A stretch of DNA of 64,000 bases from Thalia democratica (taxonomy: Eukaryota), in assembly GCA_965202585.1 (NCBI GenBank), contig OZ241832.1, forward strand, positions 56,358,001-56,422,000, given 5' to 3'. The notes below the pieces were generated by a model. The model saw only the letters and a program-made list of their open reading frames with translations, had not been told where the DNA came from and ran no database searches. This document shows positions 4,031 through 46,072 of the stretch, in pieces (the first letter of the stretch is position 1; each line of letters begins with the position of its first letter). The translations under genes and the position numbers were made by a program.

Positions 4031-5112
4031 AGTTTATTTAGAATTAATAAAAAAATAAAGATGTTTTGTTAATAATGTCCATAAAATTGAAAAAATTTAC
4101 TTGAATGGTATATGCACTGATCTCCCAATAATAATATGTTAACACGAACTAATATTAGCCGAAATGTTAAATAGTGCTAAAAATAAAAGTTTATTGCAAT
4201 TTGATGAAACATTCAATACATCTATATACCGTTTATAATTTTATCTCACTAGAAAAACAGGTGCTTCAGCCCTCATGTTAGCTATATTTTTGATGCATTC
4301 AGCTGATGATGGAATCCCTTTTTGACATGTACGGATAAGACATCACCTTTGAAAAGCTTGAAAAAAACCTCAATGATGTTTGCCCAGCTACGCATTATCG
4401 AAGAGAAAATATGCACCATGAAATTTTGGACTTAGATGAGAAGGGGGCAATTGGCAAAAGTTAGAATTCCGGGAAAACCAAAAAAATAACTATGAAAATT
4501 ATCAGTATAAACAATACTGTTAGATTAAACAGCTTAAATGGGACTTTTTTTTATTTTCTATAATGTTAAAGATGTCCATCCATAACTATACTCTGGATAA
4601 AATCAAAAAGTGGAGTGAAGAGAAAACATAAACCTAGATGGTATTGAGTTAAACAGGCTTTTAATTTGCAAGTAATACACTGAATCTGGATCAAATGTAC
4701 AACAAGTTATAATCCTGGGTGCCAAACACAAGCAGGGTGAAGACAAATGACAAACAGTTGTCTGACCACTTGAAAGTGATAAAAAACATTGACTTGGTGC
4801 TCATTGCAATTGAAGAAAACTATAGTTACATCAACTAAGATTTCCACTGATAAAATAAACAAAAAATTGTTGTCTGACAGCTTGAAAGAAAATATAAACT
4901 GAGTTTAATTATTTTACACTTAAACCATCTGCAACATACAGTGAAAATAAAAATAAACTTATCCAACTGATTATTTTTGGATAGATTGCTTACCCCTTTA
5001 GAAGGTCTTTCAATAATTCCTGACAATGTAAACCAGTTTGAATACTGTGTTTTCAGTGGTGTTGTAATAAAAAAGGAGTCTCATTGCTCTTTCAGCACTT
5101 ACCTGTGAGCTT

Positions 5113-5450
5113 TTATAAAAACTATAGGGATATCTCCGCATATACTCTGTATTGAGCTAGTGGCTCGGGGAAAAGGCCACTAGCTCCATACTTCTGGGTA
5201 ACAAAAAATTTGCAGGGTTACTTGCCTACTCACCTATAAACACAACAACTCTTCCTCTAAATTCCAGTTGCATTTAGTTTGTCTGTACAAAAGAAGAACA
5301 TTAAAGATGAAGAATACAAATACAATTTTGATGTAAACTTGCTTCCACCAAGTGTCACGGAACGGGAATTAAGTATGCCAATAAGATTGACAAGATTTTT
5401 AATCACAACAAATGTTTATGATCCATTTAATAAAATGGCATTAACGAAAG
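5113..5450. repeat. Dispersed repeat; second copy at ~11050-11385 abuts the viral element
   Basis: aaaactata(g/a)ggatat(c/a)tccgcatata...gagctagtgg...acacaacaactcttcc...aaacttgcttccaccaagtgt(c/g)acggaac is shared. Confidence 0.85.
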
Positions 5451-5679
5451 ATACAATTACAAGGAAATATCTTTAATTTCCTTTAACAAACAATACCACC
5501 CAAATGTTTCCTTTTTTAATTAAAACAAGCAAAATATTTTACTCTACCTTCGTTTTCAATATGTTGCAAATAAATATCCTTTAAACTTTAATTTTGATCT
5601 TGATGTTAATAACCAGAAAAGAAACGATGTTGAAAAAAAAAGATAAATTTTACTTATAGTTAACTAGTATGCTGTAAGT

Positions 5680-6140
5680 AAACTAGATAAAAACTTTGGT
5701 AAGGAAGAAACACCTGAGTTTTCCTAAGAAGGTTTTGATGATGAACGTTTAGTTTTGGTTTTAGAAAGTTATACTTCAAAGGAAAACCATTATCTATGTA
5801 ACGTATCCACGAAAGAGCGTGGAAAATCAAGAAAAAGCAACATCCGACCAATGGGGGGCTTACAATGTCATTGAAAGATTAGTAGATAGAAATGGTGAAC
5901 TGATGAATTAAGAACACCACACGGTTAACCATAAAGTAGGCTTGTTAACTTCGAAAACTCGTGGATACACACCCAAACCATTGAGCGGCACTGGGATGAA
6001 ATGAAGGAAGTTATCAAGAGTAGAGGGGTGAGTAAGAAGGTTGAGCAACATTTGTATAAATATAGATTTAAAAAAAATATCCATTGAACACGCTTCACCA
6101 TTTAATGGTTGAAGCAGGGAAACCATTCCCTTATTCTAGG
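5680..6140 (+). mobile_element. Merlin (IS1595/ISXO2-like DDE) transposase remnant
   Basis: From 5840: TSDQWGAYN...EHHTVNHKVG, then after a frameshift HTQTIERHWDEMKEVIKSRGVSKKVEQHLYKY. Matches the Merlin SDxWxAY...TVNHS...HTQxIExxW signature. Confidence 0.85.
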
Positions 6141-8418: not shown

Positions 8419-8890
8419 CTCTAAAAGAATGCTTTAATAACATTGACACATTTTATTGCTGTATTCATGTAGAAAAAACATTTCACACAAATTTAAAAGC
8501 AATCCTAACTTAAGATTTTTGCCAAGTAATTTGACTAAATGTAAAAAAATAGAAGAATTAAATGATAAATACGCTTTTATAACAAGCTCTAAATATTATA
8601 TTGTAGTATTAAAAATGTTCAAGATTATGTAAAAAAGATGTATTCTAAAATCAAAAATTATGTAATATACCCACTAAACAAATTTTGTAAATGCAGTAGT
8701 GTTCTGCAATAACGAACAATTGTGCTGAGTCAGTCAATGCTAAAATAAAAAATCATTAAGAACTTGAAAATATTACCAGATTGTTTTTGACTAATTTTAG
8801 TCCTATTTTTAAGTCTTAAACTACTCAAGAGTTAATTGATAGTTTGCGAGAATTAAACAATCATCAACTTATCAACAAATGTTGTCTAAT
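8419..8890. repeat. Second copy of the 2651-3120 repeat
   Basis: Direct alignment with 2651-3120. Confidence 0.85.
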
Positions 8891-9632
8891 TAACAATGCT
8901 GACTTTATATTTACTGGTGGTAGTTTTGAATTGAATAGTGTAGATGAAGAGTCTATAGATTGTTTGTATGACCAATTTTTTGAAACTGACCATTTTTCTT
9001 CTTCAGATGAAAAAAGTAATATCTAACCAATTAGGAGAAGGAATTTTAAATTGAGTAGGGGAGCATCAGGAGAATTATAAACAATCAGGTTTATGCTGAG
9101 TCATCAGACAAGGTTAGTTTGTATCCTATATTAGCATTATCCACAGCTCATCAATAACATTTTTGTTGCATGGTAAAAGTTAATACTGATGTATTTATGT
9201 TCATTTTTAAATAACTTACTTCTTTCATTTTAATTAGGCATAAACTAAGTCTGATGAAGATATGAGCTGTTTAACATAGCAAAGTAGAATATAAAATTAT
9301 TTTACAAGCAATAAGTGAAAATTTTAAGAAAATAAACTGATAACAACCTTTCAAAGTTTATTTAACAACAGTTCTTCAAATAACATTCCAGATCAACTTG
9401 AAAAATTGATAGATAATAAAGTAGATGATCTTTTGTAAAAAAAGATTCATGAGTTTTAAGTTGCAATAGTACTAATGAAATTAACAAAAACTCTTTAAAA
9501 TTTTTAAATGAACAGTGTCGAGCAAGATATAAAAAAGGATCATATAAATAACATGAAATTATTTTTAGCTTTTTCAGTCAAACCATCTGCACCATATAGT
9601 AAAAAGAGAAATTTAGTTACATATTCTATTAG

Positions 9633-11057
9633 GATTTTCAGATAGATCACTTACCTATTGCTTTGCACTGCGCCAAAATTGACAAGGCGTTTGCGATTTA
9701 TCAAAAACACCATGACAACATTTACAGCAAATTAAAGATTGACCCTTTTTTATCTATAATAGGAGCATATAGAAACGAAATTGAAACTCACTATAGACTT
9801 TACCTTCTCAGGTCACTTTTCAGTCAATATGATCTGAAGCTGGAGACCATTTGGAATTATGGCTCTGAAGTAATAAGTTTATTTTTGAACCTTTTTGACG
9901 GTGTCTCCCCTGAAAAGACAATAACGGCACAGAGCCTTGCCAGCCAGGAGACTAGTGACTTGGTTAACCAAGTTAAAGAGTTTCTTACGGAAAAATTTTC
10001 AAATTTAGATAAACCTGTTTTAAGTATTGTCGGAACTGTCACTGCCATGATCTGTTCACTGATAGGAGCCCCTCTCTTTTGTAGAAAGAAGGAATCATAT
10101 TTTTCAACTTTTGCCCGCTTTGGTGGCAACATATCCAAAATATCCGGTTTCTCAAAAGCTGACAGCATGTTTACGTCCGCTCTCAAAGCCCTTGGTGTTG
10201 ACATACTTGATATTAGTACTCAAGCCGAGAAGGAAGACCTTAAGGAGCTCTCTGAACTGATGGAGCACCTTGAAGATTTTCAGCTTCTTTGTACCACTAG
10301 CCAATCCGCCACTTTTCAAAAATTGGGGGACTTCATGGAGCTGGATAAGACATGCAAAGAAGTTGACAAGAAGTATGCTAATTTAATGAGCAAGGAATCT
10401 TACAAATTATTAGTGCCTGTATATAATAATTTCAAAAAATTGAGAGTTTCTCTCACAAAAATTTTGAAAGAATACATGAGCACTACTGAACGCCAAGTCC
10501 CCGTTTGTCTTTATCTTTATAGACCTCCGGGTGTAGGAAAATCTGAACTTCTACAGGAATTATCTTGCAGATTGCATAAAAAACTTGGTATAGCGAACAC
10601 CACCTATCCTCGATCCCCAACGGACAAATTCTAGTCGAATTATTGCGGGCAAAGTGTTGTTATGTACAATGACATGTTTTTGCTGGCCGATGGGAAAGAC
10701 GCGCAAGAGTTTATTTCAGCTGTCACTGCTGCCCCTTATGGTATCAATATGGGCGACCTCAGTGACAATGGAACTCATTATTCCTCAAAGTTTCTATTTT
10801 GCGCATCTAATACTGCGTACTACAACCTTTCTAACGTTGTTACTAATCCAGATGTTACAGACAGGCAACGCCATCTTATGTTTGAAGTCAGTCTTGCGGC
10901 TCCTTTCAATCCTAACAAAAAGAACGGGCTTGATTTTGACTTCAAGAATGTTATCTTGAGGCGAATGAACATTAAGAGGAATTGGATCGATTCGAAGTAC
11001 CTAGTTAATGATAGAAAGAGTAAGGCCAAGAAAGCTAACGAACAAAATTATTTATGA
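9633..11057 (+). pseudogene. Endogenous viral element: picorna-like (Picornavirales-type) polyprotein fragment, 2B-like region plus 2C superfamily-3 helicase
   Basis: ORFs 9663-10634 and 10662-11057 are in the same frame, split only by TAG 10632-10634 at the conserved W (DKF*SNYCGQ). RQVPVCLYLY-RPPGVGKS (Walker A, 10521-10544), VVMYND (Walker B, 10665-10673), INMGDLSDNGTHYSS, FCASN (motif C), DRQRH (Arg-finger position). Upstream are a candidate TAQ/S protease site (9924-9935) and a hydrophobic segment LSIVGTVTAMICSLIGAPLF. No ATG start and no introns. Confidence 0.9.
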
Positions 11058-11385
11058 AAACTATAAGGATATATCCGCATATAATTCTGTAAGGAGCTAG
11101 TGGTAATTTGCTGGGTAACTTGTTCTTTCAACTGTTACACAACAACTCTTCCACCACATGCTATTTGAATTGGGAAATTTAGCTTGTCTGTATTCAATAA
11201 ATGCATTTAAGTTGATGAAATAGGTTTTTTTTTAATGATACAAATACATTTTGATGAAAACTTGCTTCCACCAAGTGTGACGGAACTGGGATCAAGTATG
11301 CTAATGAGATTGACCGCACTTTTAATCACGACAAATGTTTGTAATTTTTTTGATACAATAACATCAAACAAAGAAGCCCTAATCA
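11050..11385. repeat. Second copy of the 5113-5450 repeat, directly 3' of the viral element
   Basis: Direct alignment; the right arm of the GC hairpin seen at 5154-5186 is deleted here. Confidence 0.8.
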
Positions 11386-11859
11386 AGAGATTTCTTCAAA
11401 TTTAGATAAAAATTGTAATATTTTAGAATTCTTAAAAGGAATTTCAAACATCTGTAATTTTCAATAATTACTATTTTACTAGTTTTCTACATAAATTAAT
11501 TATATAAAGTTACACAAATTTCATTTTACCAAATATTAAAAAGTTTTAAAATAACTTAAATTAAATATATTTAATATATATAATTTAAATTTTTAAACTT
11601 CATAGGTAATAAAGTTAATTGTCTATATACCTTATAGCGTCACTAAGCTAACAACCTTTTAATATTGAATAAAGATAAATCTTCTCGCAAGATTTATTTA
11701 AATCCTAACAATTTATTTAAAGACCCTCAACAAACCTAAAACCTCAAAGAAAAATCAATGATTAACTTGAGTGGCAACAAAAAATTTCAAAACGTAGCCG
11801 AAGGGCTACAATTTATTAAAATGTGTTAAAAAATAAAGATATCCCAACTAGGAGGCGCT

Positions 11860-12230
11860 GCCAGTTGTCTACCAGAATCTAGCAAATGCTTGGGTTGATC
11901 GTGTTATTTTCCAAGAAAAGTTTTGTTCGTGAGTGAGAAAACTTTGACAAGTAGAAAATACTTTTTTTACTTCAAAAATTGCTCTACACATCCAAGTGAG
12001 GAGGAACTAATATAGGCTGATAGGAAAATCTCTGCCAAGTTTCTGCCTTCAAATGTAACTGCAATCTTACAGCAAATAGATCAAGGTCTGCTTGTGTCTA
12101 TTAAAAGGGTCTATAGAAAATCAACTTTATGAGATTTTTTTCTGCAATCAACCTTCAACGTACAAGATTATTAAAAAGAACCTACATGATAAAAATTGCT
12201 GATACTATTGCATCAGCTTGGGATATGGTA
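11860..12230 (+). mobile_element. pogo/Tigger (Tc1-mariner superfamily, DDE_1) transposase remnant
   Basis: LPVVYQNLANAWVDRVIF...QNCSTHPSEEELI*ADRKISAKFLPSNVTAILQQIDQGLLVSIKRVYRK...IASAWDMVT. Matches the pogo LPxNxTxxxQPxDQG motif, with stops and frameshifts. Confidence 0.88.
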
Positions 12231-40600: not shown

Positions 40601-43600
40601 TTTTTTCAAAGTTAAACTTTTCATCAACTCACTAACTCCCATCAAATTTTAATAAAATAACAATAAACTAACTTGGGCATCTGTTTTCTGACCAGTCTGG
40701 CGTTCACGGCTCCCATCAACCCCTCGGCTTCGTCGTGCAAAACTTCGATCTGATTGACCGCCTGCGCGATGATGGAGTTGCTCATGTGTGACGTGGCGAT
40801 GTGCCAGCCAATCACCGCGAAGCATTCCATGCAGGCGAGACGGGTCGACACGTTGTTGTCCATGAGTGAGCGCGCCAACCTGTGGTGTTGTTTGTTTTAG
40901 TTTTGGGGATTTTTTGATTATAAGAGTCTTGTTATCACGCTTTCTGCCAAACAGATGCAAACATATTTCCAAATTTTAAACATACATAGGGTTTTAATCT
41001 GTATGAGTTTTATAAATTATAGTAAAATGTGAAAATTACTTTCATTTCAGCATTCTTTTTCAGTTTTTTCTACTTGATAATCTAACATATTTACTACTTA
41101 AGTTTGTATTTAAAAAACCTCGGAAATTATACACGAAAATCATATTGTACCTCAAGCACATTCTGCTGATGTCCAATGGAGGCTTTCTGTTGTACTGAGG
41201 GTACTTCAACAATACAGAAGTGATGAAGTCCACCACCTCACTTCTCAGGTCCATCCATCCGTCCATGTTGTGCTTCCTCCACATCTGCTCCACTACCTGT
41301 TTCAATTAAGGGGATTTTTTAGTTTTAATGAGTGTGTTGGTTGATTTAATTATTCTGAGAGTGGATGCAAATAACTTCCCGGGTTTTAAAATCTGGAAGG
41401 GTATTTGTACCCACTGGCACAGGACTCTAATAAATAAATGAACTGAAAGTAGTTTCTCGTATTATATATCAAACAGTTGTGCAAATTGTATTCTAAAAAG
41501 CTTCAAATAAAAAACTTTAGTATACACTGTAACTTTAAGTTGTAATCTCACATTTTTATTCAATCTAACTTATTTAAGTGACCTCTGAAGTTCAAGTAGT
41601 TCATAACTATGTATTTTCATTAAACTTTTATAAGTTAAGAAACAGGACAATAGAACACGCACCTGTTGGGGTCCGCACAGGTCGCACATTTGGAAGAGTA
41701 TTTTGGCGATCTGGGTCCTGATGCTGACGTTGGAGTTGCCCATCTGGGTAATCACCGTCGCCGCGAACAACTCCAGGTGAGGAGTCATCTTGAAGCTCAC
41801 TTTGCGGAGGATGACCTGTGAAAATGTGAAAATATAAACTAAAATTATGAAAACAACTTTAAAGGACTGATATTCATTCGGGCTAAAGTTACAAGAAAAT
41901 ATTAGTAACTTAGTTTGTAAAATAAATCATAATGTAAGTACTAATAGCATCTTAGAACAAGCTGTATATATTTAAAAACGCCTTGACGTGGATAAGAAGA
42001 TGACACAAACTAACTGTCATATTATTCTTATTTTTTATCAAATTTTGATTAAGAAATCTCACCTGCAAGCAGCTCAACGAAGTGGAAACTATCTGCAGGT
42101 TCTTGTCCCTCACTGTGGACTGCAGGATGCTCACTAGTGTGAACGTGCAGTTAGTCAGCTTGTCCGCGTTCATCTCCGGAGACTCCAGTATCCTCTTCAC
42201 TTGCTCCACCGCCTTCAGCCTAATTTTAAACGTAAATTTTGTTCGTACTTGTTCAAATTAAAAATTTCTGTTTTAAGAAGTGCAAATTTGCTAACAATAT
42301 CTTTTAACAGAAATATTAAAAGAATAGAGAAACAACTAATTGTCCTCCACAAAGAAATTCAATATCTTATCATTTTGACATCCACATTAAACTGTCGCAC
42401 AGAAATAGTTTATAAAATACTCAAGTCAAATTAATGAAGTTTAAAAAAGCAACCAACCTGATGGTGCTTATGGGGCTGGCTAGTTCAATCAAGTTCTGCT
42501 TGGTGAGGAAGGGAATGCCGAAAGTGTTCTCCACCTGCTCCATATCCCTCTCCCGCAGGTGCCTCCTCTGCGACTTCTTCCCCTCCCCTCCCGTCGGGCT
42601 CCACTCGTCCAAACTCACCGAGTTGTTCCGCGGCTTGGGCGGCGGCACCGTCTCCGGCGACCAGGCGATGCTCTTGCTGGGCGCGATGCTGATGTCCGTG
42701 TCGCTGTCGACGCCCAAAATTTCCCTGCTCTCGCTGGAGGGGATGATCCTGCGCTTGGCGAGGAAGGCCTGCAGCGGTTGCGGCAGCCTCTCGATGCACT
42801 TGCTGAACTGCGCCGCTCCCAGGTAGTCGCCGACGATCTTCCACACCTTCCTGAGCGTCGAGCCGTCCTCCGAGCCCTCCTCCTCGTCGAAACCGAGCAC
42901 CAGGGTGTGCACGACGTCGAAAAAGTCCTGGTGCTTGAACTCGGGGAAGAGCAGCGACGGGAAGCTGACCAGGACCTGGTTGAAGAAAAATGCTTGTTTT
43001 TATATCAGAGTATTTCAAGACTAATTATCATTAATAAAAAATAAATAGTAAAAATACTTTTTTTGAAACTTTTAATGTGTTGCCACAAAAGAAAACAATT
43101 AAGGTGTCATATTGTTAATAAAATAAATTAGTTATCATAATATGTTTTTAAATATTGAAAAAATTAAAATACAATAGCAAAGCATTTAAAACAATACAAG
43201 CTGCTGCAATGGATTATTACTTTTCTATTAACCATAGATGATTTATATACAAATATACTACAATAATTAATTCTCTCTCACCTGGTGCCTGGTCTTCTTG
43301 TCCTTGTGGCGCAACCCGTCGTAGGCCAAGGACTGCACGACGTACTTGAAGTCCTGCGTCCTCTTCATGTACTGGTGCACCGTCTGTATGGACTCCCTTT
43401 GCAATTTGTGCTGGTTGCTCCCGATGTTGCACACCACCCTGGTCATGATCTTCTTCATGCACGGGTCCACCTCGTTTTGCTTCAGCAGCGGTATGAGCTT
43501 GCTGACGAGCATCGTGCACTGGATCTGGTGGGGAGTCGACCTGCGTGTTTTGGTAAAATTAGCATAAAATCTCATTAAAAATATTTAAATTTATAAAAGC

Positions 43601-46072
43601 ACATATTTATTAAGCAGACTTTTTAAATATAAACCAGAATGCAAAATGCATGTGCTCTAACATTTCATATATGTAATAAGTAAGTATAAAACTAAAAAAA
43701 ATTTAAAGTAACTCAAGAAATATGCATTCACGTCAACAATCATGAAAATACATCAAAGTTACCTGTAATCGGCCAGCACCCTGTGGAACTGTTCGAACAG
43801 CACGGACCTGTCCAGCAGGGCCAGCATGTTGCTGTTCCTCGTCACGTTCTTGTCGATGTAGTGGAGCGCCTGCTGCCGGCTCTGAGCGTTCGATAATAAT
43901 TCCACCAGGATCTTCTCGTCCAGGATGCCCTGCATGTGCGCGTCGCGGGAGATCCTGTTCATGTCCGCCTCTTCTTCCTTGCTCTTGAGCCTCGACGGGT
44001 GCGGGGGTTTCTGGGCGAGCAGCTTGGGTTCTGGCGGGCTGTCCTGCTTCTTGCCCTTCCTGCTCGACTTCAGGTGCACCGTGGGCTTCCAGTTGGGGTC
44101 CTGCTGGAGGATGGAGCAGGGTTCGGGGATGTGTCGCCTCGCGGTGAGCTTGACGGGCTGCGACAGCTCAATAGTCTGCTGCAGCAGTTTCGTCGACTTC
44201 GACAGTCCCCTGGATTGATCGGGTTTGGGGGCTTTTTTCTCGACTACTTTTAGCGGCTGTACCAGGTGCAGGTCCCCTTTGGGTTTCTCCTTGGGGACGA
44301 TTGCAGGCAAGAGGGTGGGCTTGCTGTTGGAGCTGGGTTGTTGGGGCGGCGGTCGCTTGGCAACCCGGTTCTTTAGCGCGAAAAGGGGGTTGTTGTCGCC
44401 GTGGGAGTTGGCTGTCTGGCCCCTCTGGTTTCTTCTTTTTCCTCCTCTTTTAGGGGTTTGCCCTTTGAGGCGCTCTTCTATCTGACGGTCACTCTCCTTG
44501 GCTGTTTATGAATAGAAAAATATGAATGAGAGAACTAGCAGAGGGCGAGGTTGAAAATTATTCTGAGGGTGGCAGTTACAGAGTCCATTTTTAATTATCT
44601 ACCACTATTTTAATAATTGTTTATCTATTTAAATTATAAAACCTGTAAAGAATGAGTTTTTTAATTGAAAGTTTTCGAACTTTTTTCTTACAAGCAAAAC
44701 AGTCAAATTAATTATTTAGAGTAGGTACTAGACTACAAAAACATGAAATAAAAATAGCAGATGATTATAATTTAAGATATAAGTTTAGTATTTTTTCAGA
44801 AAGAAAAAAACCTAATTGTTTGGTACTAAAACAGTCTTAAACTGCAAACTTGAATAAAAATTATTTTACATAACAATAAAACAGAGTTCAAATAAAGTAT
44901 TGCTTAACAATTTAGCATGGTGCAACAAAAGTACTTTAAAGCAGGCAGATTGTCAATATTTTCATAATAGCTCGAGAGCTCTTAGACTTGATTAAGTGGT
45001 TATTTAATTTCATAAAATGGAAAACGTGCAAAATGACAAACTTTTACTGTCATTTGTGATACTTAAACTTTAAAATACGTTTTATTTTTCTAAAAATAAT
45101 CAATAGTTTTTCAACTATACTTGACCTTACCAAAAAAATTTTAAGCAAAATTATTTAAAAAAAAGTTAGATTAAGATTAAAATATTAGTTAATTTTTTAA
45201 ACAATTGCTAAAAGTTCATCTACAAAATTTAACTAAATACAAGTTTTTGTGTCAAGAATATAAATAAGTCAAATAAATGCAATACTTGTAACAAAGACTG
45301 TTTCGATTTTATTCAAATACCTTAAATTACTAAACTTAGATACGATAAGTTAAAATATTTATATATATCTATAGAAGATAACACATACTAAGTTTAAAAT
45401 CAATGCTTTAAGTTTATTTTATAAGTCAAAAATAATTAAAGCTAACAATAAAATGTATATGCAGCCAAATAAACTTAACAGCAAAATATAAATACTGGTT
45501 TAGATATTATTCGCACAAGAAATGTTCAAGCTAACAAAAAGAGTCATTTAAATAAAAAAAACAAAGAAAGAAACAGCTAATATTAAATATAAACTTTTAA
45601 AAAACGTTTTAAAAAGTTTACATCCCACTAAATCAACTAAAAAAGTTAGAACAAAAGCTTTCAAATCAAGCAACACCATTTGCAAACAAAACAGTGTTTT
45701 AATGTTGCACTTGTTACTTAAACAACTATTTCTTTAACAATAAAATTTAAACTCAACATTTTCACAACAAAGAAACATTTTACGAACTTTTTTAACAGCT
45801 AAAACAAACTTTAAACTTAAAAAAATCATATCTTGCGCTTTTTCAAGCCACCTAAGACTTAGAGCTGTAATCGTTTCAATTGCATGTTTGAGTATTGTTG
45901 CTTGAGGTTAGCCTAATCCCTAACAAAATATTTTGCTCCGCTTTGCTTTGTAGCGCCAGTCAATTATACGAGGTTTGATGCGCTTTTATTGCTTAAAACG
46001 TCGCGGACATAACAAAACACAACAAATAAACTCACAGTGGACGTCGGGTAGAATTAAATTCGGCTTTTTCAT
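25380..46072 (-). CDS. TOGARAM1: TOG array regulator of axonemal microtubules (TOGARAM1/FAM179B/Crescerin/che-12-like), 32 coding exons, ~1967 aa
   Basis: All GT-AG exons join in phase from ATG 46072 to TGA 25382-25380, total 5904 nt. Family-like motifs: VRDKNLQIVSTSL (TOG2), KPALARSAS and SIRRSAQDKRARM (linker), NLRSQVSRVAV, TNVFMREEIDKTL, DSHQDVRYHGR (TOG3), TSNSKANLLALE, LLGPFCNQAKFAQGKA (TOG4). Confidence 0.9.
25922..26008 (-). CDS. TOGARAM1: TOGARAM1-like exon 31
   Basis: ANILLGPFCNQAKFAQGKARKYAFEKLT. Confidence 0.9.
26247..26457 (-). CDS. TOGARAM1: TOGARAM1-like exon 30
   Basis: VLEVFSTLLTTSNSKANLLALENF...NICSKI. Confidence 0.9.
26808..26942 (-). CDS. TOGARAM1: TOGARAM1-like exon 29 (TOG4 start)
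   Basis: STEDLKDILSRVNKGDFQSKKEAF...DSFKK. Confidence 0.85.
27193..27300 (-). CDS. TOGARAM1: TOGARAM1-like exon 28
   Basis: GLKSAHIGGKRAS...SYINQQ. Confidence 0.85.
28012..28188 (-). CDS. TOGARAM1: TOGARAM1-like exon 27
   Basis: TSQFIVDSHQDVRYHGR...HQIKER. Confidence 0.92.
28587..28707 (-). CDS. TOGARAM1: TOGARAM1-like exon 26
   Basis: HKNKDIRSACSNYV...QRLFEC. Confidence 0.9.
28914..29053 (-). CDS. TOGARAM1: TOGARAM1-like exon 25
   Basis: FPLKALVIEYGKTNVFMREEIDKTLEAM...LDIGA. Confidence 0.92.
29319..29417 (-). CDS. TOGARAM1: TOGARAM1-like exon 24
   Basis: VSNLRSQVSRVAVSTLCSLY...DIDLE. Confidence 0.92.
29851..30011 (-). CDS. TOGARAM1: TOGARAM1-like exon 23 (TOG3 start)
   Basis: KDLQQALTQM...ELWKQIA...VVRLLSKQ. 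Confidence 0.85.
30262..30357 (-). CDS. TOGARAM1: TOGARAM1-like exon 22
   Basis: NRRSTLNKTDSF...SNASFS. Confidence 0.7.
30583..30702 (-). CDS. TOGARAM1: TOGARAM1-like exon 21
   Basis: VQYSNQFSPS...NFNKR. Confidence 0.75.
30956..31130 (-). CDS. TOGARAM1: TOGARAM1-like exon 20
   Basis: NRPPMHKRNS...MKLVGVGI...INVKGR. Confidence 0.8.
32028..32133 (-). CDS. TOGARAM1: TOGARAM1-like exon 19
   Basis: SPTNSEKQ...SPTQPIIN, GTAAGT donor. Confidence 0.75.
32750..32886 (-). CDS. TOGARAM1: TOGARAM1-like exon 18
   Basis: ASMASIRRSAQDKRARM...AQSSF. Confidence 0.85.
33171..33340 (-). CDS. TOGARAM1: TOGARAM1-like exon 17
   Basis: ESAIEAQSSRMSKHAPSP...SEMPHN. Confidence 0.8.
33606..33864 (-). CDS. TOGARAM1: TOGARAM1-like exon 16
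   Basis: NTMTSAEKF...SGYHSL...LTSQAS. Confidence 0.8.
34159..34289 (-). CDS. TOGARAM1: TOGARAM1-like exon 15
   Basis: AESRMIMTKPALARSASKHRKK...PRNL. Confidence 0.85.
34648..34878 (-). CDS. TOGARAM1: TOGARAM1-like exon 14 (contains 3x21-bp TSQRDS repeat)
   Basis: VIEEQLPASS...MTSQRDSVTSQRDSFTSQRDS...SEKSMS. Confidence 0.8.
35182..35406 (-). CDS. TOGARAM1: TOGARAM1-like exon 13
   Basis: RNSYMPSFAAHDSS...SSKVAS. Confidence 0.85.
36072..36204 (-). CDS. TOGARAM1: TOGARAM1-like exon 12
   Basis: IRSSHQSPSLRRQ...YKSSTQ. Confidence 0.8.
37969..38181. mobile_element. hAT (Charlie-type) MITE in intron 11 with 8-bp TSD
   Basis: tactaaac|caggggtcggcaaactgcggcccgcgggcc...cctgccgacccctg|tactaaac. Confidence 0.93.
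38632..38940. repeat. Three tandem ~125-150-bp units, each beginning with a copy of the exon-11 3' end/donor
   Basis: acctgtgg(a/g)gc(g/a)t.(c/t)tgtga(g/a)ga occurs at ~38632, 38758 and 38904. Confidence 0.8.
38906..39096 (-). CDS. TOGARAM1: TOGARAM1-like exon 11
   Basis: SPFKNSF...RKQLSNKMFPWTSS...QYAPQ. Confidence 0.85.
39320..39442 (-). CDS. TOGARAM1: TOGARAM1-like exon 10
   Basis: QEGVFMPRDNSYSSRE...KVLQGP. Confidence 0.8.
39973..40091 (-). CDS. TOGARAM1: TOGARAM1-like exon 9
   Basis: FNRTTLLMEYSKQPSYATADVIW... Confidence 0.85.
40515..40575. repeat. Short hairpin element (22-bp perfect inverted repeat); diverged copy at 41360-41415
   Basis: ccaatggatacaaacatcttcc-tagagttttataatctg-ggaagatgtttgtatccattgg, followed by cacagg in both copies. 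Confidence 0.85.
40673..40879 (-). CDS. TOGARAM1: TOGARAM1-like exon 8
   Basis: LARSLMDNNVSTRLACMECFAVI...AVNARLVRKQMP. Confidence 0.9.
41151..41296 (-). CDS. TOGARAM1: TOGARAM1-like exon 7
   Basis: VVEQMWRKHN...RSEVVDFITSVLLKYP...ISRMCL. Confidence 0.9.
41663..41815 (-). CDS. TOGARAM1: TOGARAM1-like exon 6
   Basis: VILRKVSFKM...QMGNSNVSIRTQ...CGPQQ. Confidence 0.9.
42063..42219 (-). CDS. TOGARAM1: TOGARAM1-like exon 5
   Basis: LKAVEQVKRIL...VRDKNLQIVSTSLSCLQ. Confidence 0.9.
42458..42975 (-). CDS. TOGARAM1: TOGARAM1-like exon 4
   Basis: VLVSFPSLLFPEF...IELASPISTI. Confidence 0.9.
43282..43540 (-). CDS. TOGARAM1: TOGARAM1-like exon 3
   Basis: STPHQIQCTMLVSKLIPLL...YDGLRHKDKKTRHQ. Confidence 0.9.
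43763..44501 (-). CDS. TOGARAM1: TOGARAM1-like exon 2
   Basis: KESDRQIEERLKG...LFEQFHRVLADY, 739 nt open. Confidence 0.9.
46036..46072 (-). CDS. TOGARAM1: TOGARAM1-like exon 1 (start)
   Basis: ATG...MKKPNLILPDVH, T|GTGAGT, phase 1 matches exon 2. Confidence 0.75.

Follow-up and report, generated by a model that had tools for sequence, protein, structure and literature searches.

A broken solinvivirus-like replicase fragment, very probably integrated in the chromosome of a likely tunicate

Described picorna-like EVEs and the present locus

As a mechanism, the formation of EVEs is already well known. In the part of the horseshoe crab study available to us (PMC12282059), 2 of the 20 EVEs belong to Picornavirales (the dicistrovirus-like TgEVE3/TtEVE3) and 11 are chuvirus-like, and the bumblebee NIRVS, as described in the accessible text of PMC12922265, do not include Picornavirales. 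Both sets fit the statement, made in an earlier note on the DNA analyzed here, that picorna-like EVEs are the rarer kind. As far as the horseshoe crab text goes, TgEVE3/TtEVE3 resemble our locus in being fragments of a Picornavirales non-structural polyprotein in the genome of a marine animal and in representing a minority class, but they come from an arthropod host and a dicistrovirus source, whereas here the host is likely a chordate and the source solinvivirus-like. The NIRVS located in piRNA clusters of Ixodes and Aedes, in the sections of PMC6580184 used here, are likewise fragments of unrelated RNA viruses lying among transposon remnants in a strand-biased locus. There, however, the piRNAs were sequenced, while the present arrangement is known from DNA layout alone, and its neighbors are mostly scraps of DNA transposons rather than the LTR and LINE elements of Ixodes/Aedes.

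No picorna-like EVE of a tunicate or other chordate was found in the literature covered, which consisted of abstracts and main texts of mostly open-access papers. The word "picorna" is absent from the main text of the amphioxus paper (PMC10145014) and "Picornavirales" from the accessible portion of PMC11097642, and the accessible portions of PMC10101049, PMC9854234, PMC5660997, and PMC6085071 held no comparable case. EVEs of positive-strand viruses are already on record for chordates, a reference to a pestivirus EVE in shrews appearing in that portion of PMC9854234. The element described below is a sound EVE of a known kind, unusual for its host and its context. With it, picorna-like EVEs would extend from arthropods to chordates. 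The element is likely the trace of an infection that became heritable in an invertebrate closely related to the vertebrates.

The window, a stretch of 64,000 nucleotides, lies within the 67-Mb contig C8. The mitochondrial COX1 gave GGGDP and FFGHPEVY only under table 13, among the seven tables tried; the reading of mitochondrial AGA/AGG as Gly is specific to tunicates. NUMTs on contig C4 (56.84 to 56.94 Mb; L038 and L039) are 79% identical to the mitogenome over 3 to 4 kb and have kept AGA/AGG at 24 of the 32 aligned AGR codons, indicating that this mitogenome lineage is native to the host. Judging from these sequences, the host is highly likely to be a tunicate. PF01341 and PF03552 (cellulose synthase) gave no nuclear match in an exon-by-exon search, in which the control was also silent for one of them. 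The mitogenome itself (C1833; L043 and L044) is 14.1 kb long and divergent, with its recognizable genes all on one strand.

The insert and its source virus

The earlier note had pointed out a frame of about 470 codons interrupted by a single TAG, without start codon or introns, encoding an SF3 helicase preceded by a Q/S site and a hydrophobic helix and richer in GC than its surroundings, and all of these features were recovered (Table 1). The plus-strand frame 9633..11057 comprises 474 codons with one internal stop, while the best frame of 500 shuffled versions never had fewer than 13 (mean of 23). A Met first appears at codon 139, the frame can be read without introns, and GC reaches 0.39 in the insert versus 0.27 and 0.29 in the 2-kb flanks. 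The extent given to the viral fragment held for 9660 to 11050 only; 9633 to 9659 and the part from 11051 onwards, including the first nine codons and the final stop of the frame, are host repeat sequence. A tblastn alignment with P0003, one of the two closest relatives, spans 9648 to 11048 at 63% identity.

Table 1. Position and basis of the features discussed (window coordinates unless a locus or contig is named).
Feature	Position	Strand	Remarks
Mutator-like transposase remnant	8471..9154	+	tblastn with the L015 ORF
Left host flank	9155..9659	+	Decayed repeat; last part is the 5' remnant of a DNA-virus-like SF3/D5 helicase ORF, junction residues read by eye
Virus-derived insert	9660..11050	+	5' portion of a solinvivirus-like non-structural ORF, truncated on both sides
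Truncated N-terminal leader, up to a putative 3C-type Q/S site	9660..9932	+	Predicted cleavage
Hydrophobic helix	10026..10082	+	Residues 132-150; 2B-like by position only
SF3 (2C-like) helicase core	10512..10814	+	PF00910, residues 294-394; non-consensus Walker A and Walker B
In-frame stop (TAG)	10632..10634	+	Between motifs A and B
Right host flank	11051..11402	+	Same decayed SF3/D5-like ORF continued; tblastn, residues 129-256 of intact copy L040
pogo/Tigger-type DDE_1 transposase remnant	11947..12150	+	PF03184, E 1.7e-6, above cut-off
N-like ORF copies	L021:3809-4450 and L022:3368-4467	+	Some 21 and 11 kb ahead of the window
RdRp fragment, about 1 kb	L005:5189-6203 (C5:15199188-15200202)	-	Two frames, PF00680

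With the stop codon read as X, the frame matched PF00910 with an E value of 1e-19 (71.4 bits, the cut-off being 21.5), and all seven PDB sequence matches at E<=0.1 were of the RNA-virus helicase type, labeled picornavirus 2C, genome polyprotein, or NTPase, the entries behind the last two labels being titled as hepatitis A 2C and norovirus NS3. The probability that the fragment comes instead from a DNA virus (parvovirus NS1 or CRESS Rep) or from a cellular AAA+ helicase is negligible: SF3 folds are shared, and a circovirus Rep reached a Foldseek E value of 2.6e-4 against the model of P0003, but the best matches are RNA-virus helicases, which rank far above (E values of 6e-10 to 1e-4), the long relatives carry RdRP_1, and the helicase tree keeps the two kinds separate.

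Upstream of the helicase, the Q of the putative cleavage site (9930 to 9932) aligns with a PQ/S in both close relatives, P0002 and P0003, the latter having a further PQ/C ahead of its second NTPase. The hydrophobic helix is also conserved, with a mean Kyte-Doolittle hydropathy of 2.0 compared to 2.1 to 2.2 in the same two proteins. In the structure predicted for P0003 (pLDDT of 57), the helix region is modeled as helical at low confidence; the model backs the helicase only.

Among 6,999 candidates, two matched the insert, P0002 at 67% and P0003 at 63% identity, both of them unnamed ENA proteins. Searching exhaustively with the part of the frame that precedes the stop yielded eight matches, namely P0002, six at 25 to 29%, and a zinc-finger protein discarded as spurious. 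The four named matches, at 25 to 29% identity, were Wufeng shrew picorna-like virus 26 (WPV63554.1), Pot worm picorna-like virus (WPR17634.1), Hubei picorna-like virus 69 (YP_009337104.1), and Wabat virus (YP_009272708.1). In the helicase tree (59 rows, with 8 duplicates and 1 short row dropped, L048 giving no row, and a midpoint root), the insert, P0002, and P0003 formed a group (100/100) nested in a clade of 11 rows (97/90), and 14 rows of small contigs, whose Rep-like label is inferred from their size and the absence of GDD, formed a separate clade; the deeper join was weak. The previous suggestion of a divergent, undescribed virus lineage is supported.

RdRP_1 was found in all five long relatives, and a second P-loop follows the helicase in P0003, in the five long relatives, and in L051 and L052, the only fetched contigs with two P-loops, both of which fall in the 11-row clade; the insert ends before it. 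In P0002, P0003, P0005, and P0006 a Met start lies about 30 residues before the left viral junction, so that the insert derives from the 5' beginning of a non-structural ORF that no capsid region precedes. In L052, a distant member of the clade, a Calici_coat domain (E value of 7e-16) is found in a downstream and separate ORF that begins at 5673, after a stop at 5594; Pfam detected no capsid domain in the five long relatives. The layout proposed before, a Picornaviridae-type 2B-2C segment behind a capsid, is not what the relatives show. PMC9013969, in the part consulted, attributes a second P-loop to solinviviruses and to unclassified viruses related to them. In Solinviviridae the capsid extends the replication polyprotein (ICTV profile, PMC12662029), an arrangement not seen in L052 or in the five long relatives, which were tested here in place of the source virus itself. 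The second P-loop in the clade, together with the 3' calici-like capsid gene of its distant member L052, points to a solinvivirus-like virus and not to a Picornaviridae 2B-2C. We call the putative source solinvivirus-like rather than a member of Solinviviridae because L052 has no capsid extension and our trees contain no named solinvivirus.

The four named viruses share with the insert and its relatives an SF3 helicase near the start of the non-structural ORF, followed by a second P-loop, and fall with them in one clade in both the helicase and the RdRp trees. They differ in that the insert, P0002, and P0003 sit on their own long-stemmed branch (0.71) at 25 to 29% identity, that the insert stops before the second P-loop, and that its host is a likely tunicate versus arthropods or annelids. 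The helicase lies at residue 316 in P0003, 328 in the Pot worm virus, and 735 to 769 in the other three. There are few means other than a chromosomal insertion by which a marine virus lineage of unassigned host can be connected with an animal. This one gives a likely tunicate host to two unnamed proteins and to a clade whose other names come from invertebrate or mixed samples.

Protein homology searches, which are weak evidence here, gave no longer relatives of the insert or of the polymerase piece on contig C5 (see below), and single-protein queries against viral and metagenome contigs gave no related loci; an alignment query recovered distant loci only (3 and 56). P0003, P0004, and P0005 share their terminal residue, while the ends of P0004 and P0006 differ although their contigs are 4.7 to 4.8 kb long, on which account P0003 to P0006 may themselves be endogenous (EVEs in another host) or mis-assembled. 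Other domains seen in members of the clade are an AlkB-like 2OG-Fe(II) oxygenase after the RdRp in P0007, P0008, and P0013 (below cut-off in two of them) and a NADAR domain in P0009.

The damage to the frame had been described as a single internal stop, which is correct but understated, as Walker A and Walker B are each altered relative to the sequence common to P0002 and P0003. In the helicase core, 15 of 134 alignment columns are changed in the insert alone, versus 5 and 4 in P0002 and P0003, and its branch is about threefold longer (0.19 versus 0.06 and 0.07). The insert is thus likely decaying, probably neutrally, without making a working helicase. Co-option as a host gene, with a truncated 2B/2C-like product interfering with viral replication, seems very improbable: about 460 codons have remained in one frame with a single stop, and the Met at codon 139 opens 195 codons, but motif damage, the longer branch, and the excess of core changes speak against it, as do the missing viral start and the location inside repeat debris.

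Integration, age, and capture

Both flanks of the insert are multi-copy host repeats. A paralogous block about 48 kb upstream, 83 to 91% identical over several kilobases, aligns with the left flank as far as 9659 (90%) and resumes with the right flank at 11051 (85%), with only 114 bases in between where the window has 1,391 viral bases. The left flank is 90% identical to L019:5407-5906 in this paralog, and L027/L028 match 9567 to 9655. Such a near-empty paralog is a rare base-level view of a capture site. Because it shares several kilobases of unrelated scraps on both sides and lacks the virus, the insertion occurred at its present site after the block duplication.

In runs X1 and X2, which derive from one sample, possibly the source of the assembly and so not independent of it, one contig covers 9590 to 11080 with no differences, the internal stop included, at a depth of 45/33 compared with 48 to 50/35 to 38 for exact flank contigs, i.e., at single-copy depth. 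It overlaps the left junction by 70 letters and the right one by 30, one under the bridging threshold of 31. Contigs from DNA runs do extend past both junctions; a stop 30 bases into the repeat is what we infer would be expected of a 31-mer graph at a true junction. In run X3, from another study and with another organism label, a 1,716-nt contig fits 9660 to 11080 with 37 differences in about 1,420 bases and ends at the same base as the X1/X2 contig, 30 letters into the host repeat, its first 296 bases being unlike the window. Its depth is 4, versus 36 to 117 for the repeat contigs listed in X3, for which candidate readings are a low allele frequency, a pooled or chimeric sample, or a second organism. 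The marine metagenome X4 contains three pieces of 151 to 155 nt with 3 to 6 differences each. Run X5, from the sample of X1, matched next to nothing of the insert, which weighs neither for nor against it. On the presence of the insertion across individuals, which the earlier note wished to see checked, the candidate evidence is this low-depth copy under a second organism label and the three metagenome pieces.

We consider an assembly chimera or viral cDNA contamination hardly credible. The best runs are possibly the assembly's own source, and contigs were compared rather than long reads, but single-copy depth, the presence of the internal stop in the run contigs, junctions located inside a repeat ORF that has a near-empty paralog, and the recurrence in a different study of a copy, 97% identical, that has the right end in common all argue against it. 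Insertion in host DNA is upheld by the paralog, the multi-copy flanks, and the run contigs, and the best explanation, very probably the correct one, is a broken 1.4-kb fragment of a solinvivirus-like replicase integrated in a host chromosome and decaying since.

The repeat interrupted by the insert belongs to a host family that combines a ubiquitin C-terminal hydrolase ORF (PF00443, E value of 5e-25) with a DUF5906/D5-like SF3 helicase ORF, found at L040:221-1183 and 4486-5694, L041, L042, and positions 4911-5847 and 11051-11402 of the window, with near-intact long-ORF copies on contigs C7 and C14. The right-flank ORF has DUF5906/D5-like proteins as its nearest Atlas clusters (score of 0.96). 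This repeat is possibly an endogenous DNA virus or a virus-like transposon, and it is apparently by chance that an RNA-virus SF3 helicase landed in its SF3 gene. The insert could also be cargo of this mobile repeat, which would have captured viral cDNA elsewhere in the genome. It interrupts the helicase ORF of the repeat in the same orientation, and the copies on C7 and C14 have intact long ORFs, but the paralog shares the flanking scraps at 83 to 91% identity without the virus and the P0003 query gave one genomic match among three candidates, which makes transport as cargo improbable.

Regarding age, sequence divergence places the insertion after the block duplication (9 to 17%) and, if the X3 copy is the same insertion, it would be older than the 2.6% split. 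The previous claim of a fairly recent integration stands insofar as the insert is younger than the decay of the surrounding transposons and than the local block duplication, and less so in view of its threefold branch (0.19 versus 0.06 to 0.07) and the 37 differences in the X3 copy. Tunicates evolve fast, according to the text consulted of PMC5174732.

As for capture, an infection probably reached a germline or stem cell, where the reverse transcriptase of a host retroelement likely copied part of the viral RNA into DNA. The latter step is proposed because viruses of this group do not pass through DNA; the insert itself carries no adjoining retroelement. The cDNA was then likely joined at a break, or by template switching, within the already decayed host repeat, and decayed in turn. 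Sequence inspection found no poly(A) at the insert, and a repeat scan found no flanking target-site duplication or terminal repeat. An internal ORF piece with neither poly(A) nor target duplication, and with 114 host bases missing relative to the paralog, favors break repair or template switching over LINE-type priming. The 114 bases might have been lost upon insertion or through a deletion that came afterwards, the differing left side of the X3 contig hinting at the latter.

Same-strand repeats and other viral fragments

From -41 to +13 kb, the 28 Mutator-like HSPs, the 9 of the SF3 repeat, the 4 N-like ones, the Tigger remnant, and the insert are all on the plus strand, the exception on the minus strand being one ORF taken by eye for hAT-like. 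Self-repeats in the bins from -30 to +10 kb comprise 0 inverted bases versus 5 to 17 kb of direct ones per bin. These HSPs are non-independent, as they include frameshift pieces and duplicated blocks at 83 to 91% identity, and the queries were drawn from the region itself and its relatives. Block duplication explains part of the strand bias; several unrelated families still share the strand.

These roughly 55 kb of same-strand transposon scraps around the insert resemble the layout of a piRNA cluster, and with the insert on the strand of nearly all the scraps, a cluster transcript from the opposite strand would give antisense piRNAs against the virus. The insert might thus have been kept as a template for antisense piRNAs against a related virus in a uni-strand cluster transcribed from the minus strand, a reading that is possible although we hold it to be doubtful. 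It would agree with the uniform strand, the lack of inverted self-repeats, and two bunyavirus-N-like pieces at about -21 and -11 kb, as well as with the enrichment of tick NIRVS in piRNA clusters, with 91% antisense small RNAs, given in the consulted sections of PMC6580184, and with the production of piRNAs by tunicates stated in those of PMC5897368 and PMC5174732. However, the HSPs are non-independent, the layout alone proves neither transcription nor benefit, piRNA pairing would be poor at 63 to 67% protein identity unless a closer virus circulates, and the surroundings of the related piece on contig C5 showed none of these repeat families. Mosquitoes and ticks have been argued to possess a piRNA memory derived from EVEs, and the locus bears on whether such a memory exists so close to the vertebrates.

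Repeat labels come from tblastn of the local sequence and from a set of 12 short references, a single one of which matched. The Pfam Mutator/MULE match of the L015 ORF was weak (E values of 0.0009 to 0.003, below cut-off), a Merlin-like label read by eye was not confirmed by the short-reference search, and Penelope-like and hAT-like ORFs, also labeled by eye, matched no Pfam family. A second cluster of the same repeat scraps is found at C8:30.00-30.23 Mb (L012, L018, L027 to L029, L035, and L036). Positions 42000 to 45000 of the window form a GC-rich patch (0.39 to 0.49) with overlapping ORFs of 130 to 250 codons, five of which were scanned without a Pfam match.

Outside this locus, a PF00910 profile search of the genome (28 candidates scored) gave no other match, and PF00680 matched two adjacent frames at C5:15.199 Mb with E values of 7e-17 and 4e-16. 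The larger of these RdRp frames has its nearest relative in Pot worm picorna-like virus (37%). In the RdRp tree, where rows L067 and L070 are anchored on the wrong GDD and unreliable, the piece falls in the virus clade of the insert at 98/96 on a long branch (1.56). Both fragments belong to the same clade and may, but need not, come from one virus. A query with the full Pot worm polyprotein detected no further genomic piece among five candidates. In the 50 kb around it, the repeat families of the insert locus were not found, and 1 of 12 queries, its own SUMO-like one, matched. Two SUMO-like ORFs lie 1.4 to 2.3 kb from the RdRp piece on the same strand.

The two N-like copies upstream of the window are 93% identical to each other and run into a Mutator-like remnant. 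Their Tenui_N matches are weak (E values of 0.002 and 0.0006, below cut-off), but they are 41 to 64% identical to L108 and L110, and L107, of the same family, passes the Tenui_N cut-off. Folded alone, the ORF gave a pLDDT of 38, and a PDB sequence search gave no match of note. They are probably nucleoprotein EVEs of a phenui/bunyavirus-like kind, as judged by this family relationship. A broader and speculative reading, which we regard as rather unlikely, is that tunicates, which are the sister group of the vertebrates, keep a heritable antiviral archive in which same-strand piRNA clusters repeatedly capture pieces of RNA viruses. The helicase on C8 and the polymerase on C5 would then be the first picorna-like EVEs of chordates, derived from an unnamed solinvivirus-like marine lineage and accompanied by bunyavirus-like N pieces, with the insertion possibly still segregating and P0002 and P0003 possibly representing independent captures.

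Further Tenui_N-like ORFs are located at C8:63.72 Mb (L107, a frame of 398 codons above the Pfam cut-off), C6:67.13 Mb (L108), and C5:14.85 Mb (L110). In L108, an additional ORF at positions 1-768 resembles, on visual inspection, a mononegavirus nucleoprotein.
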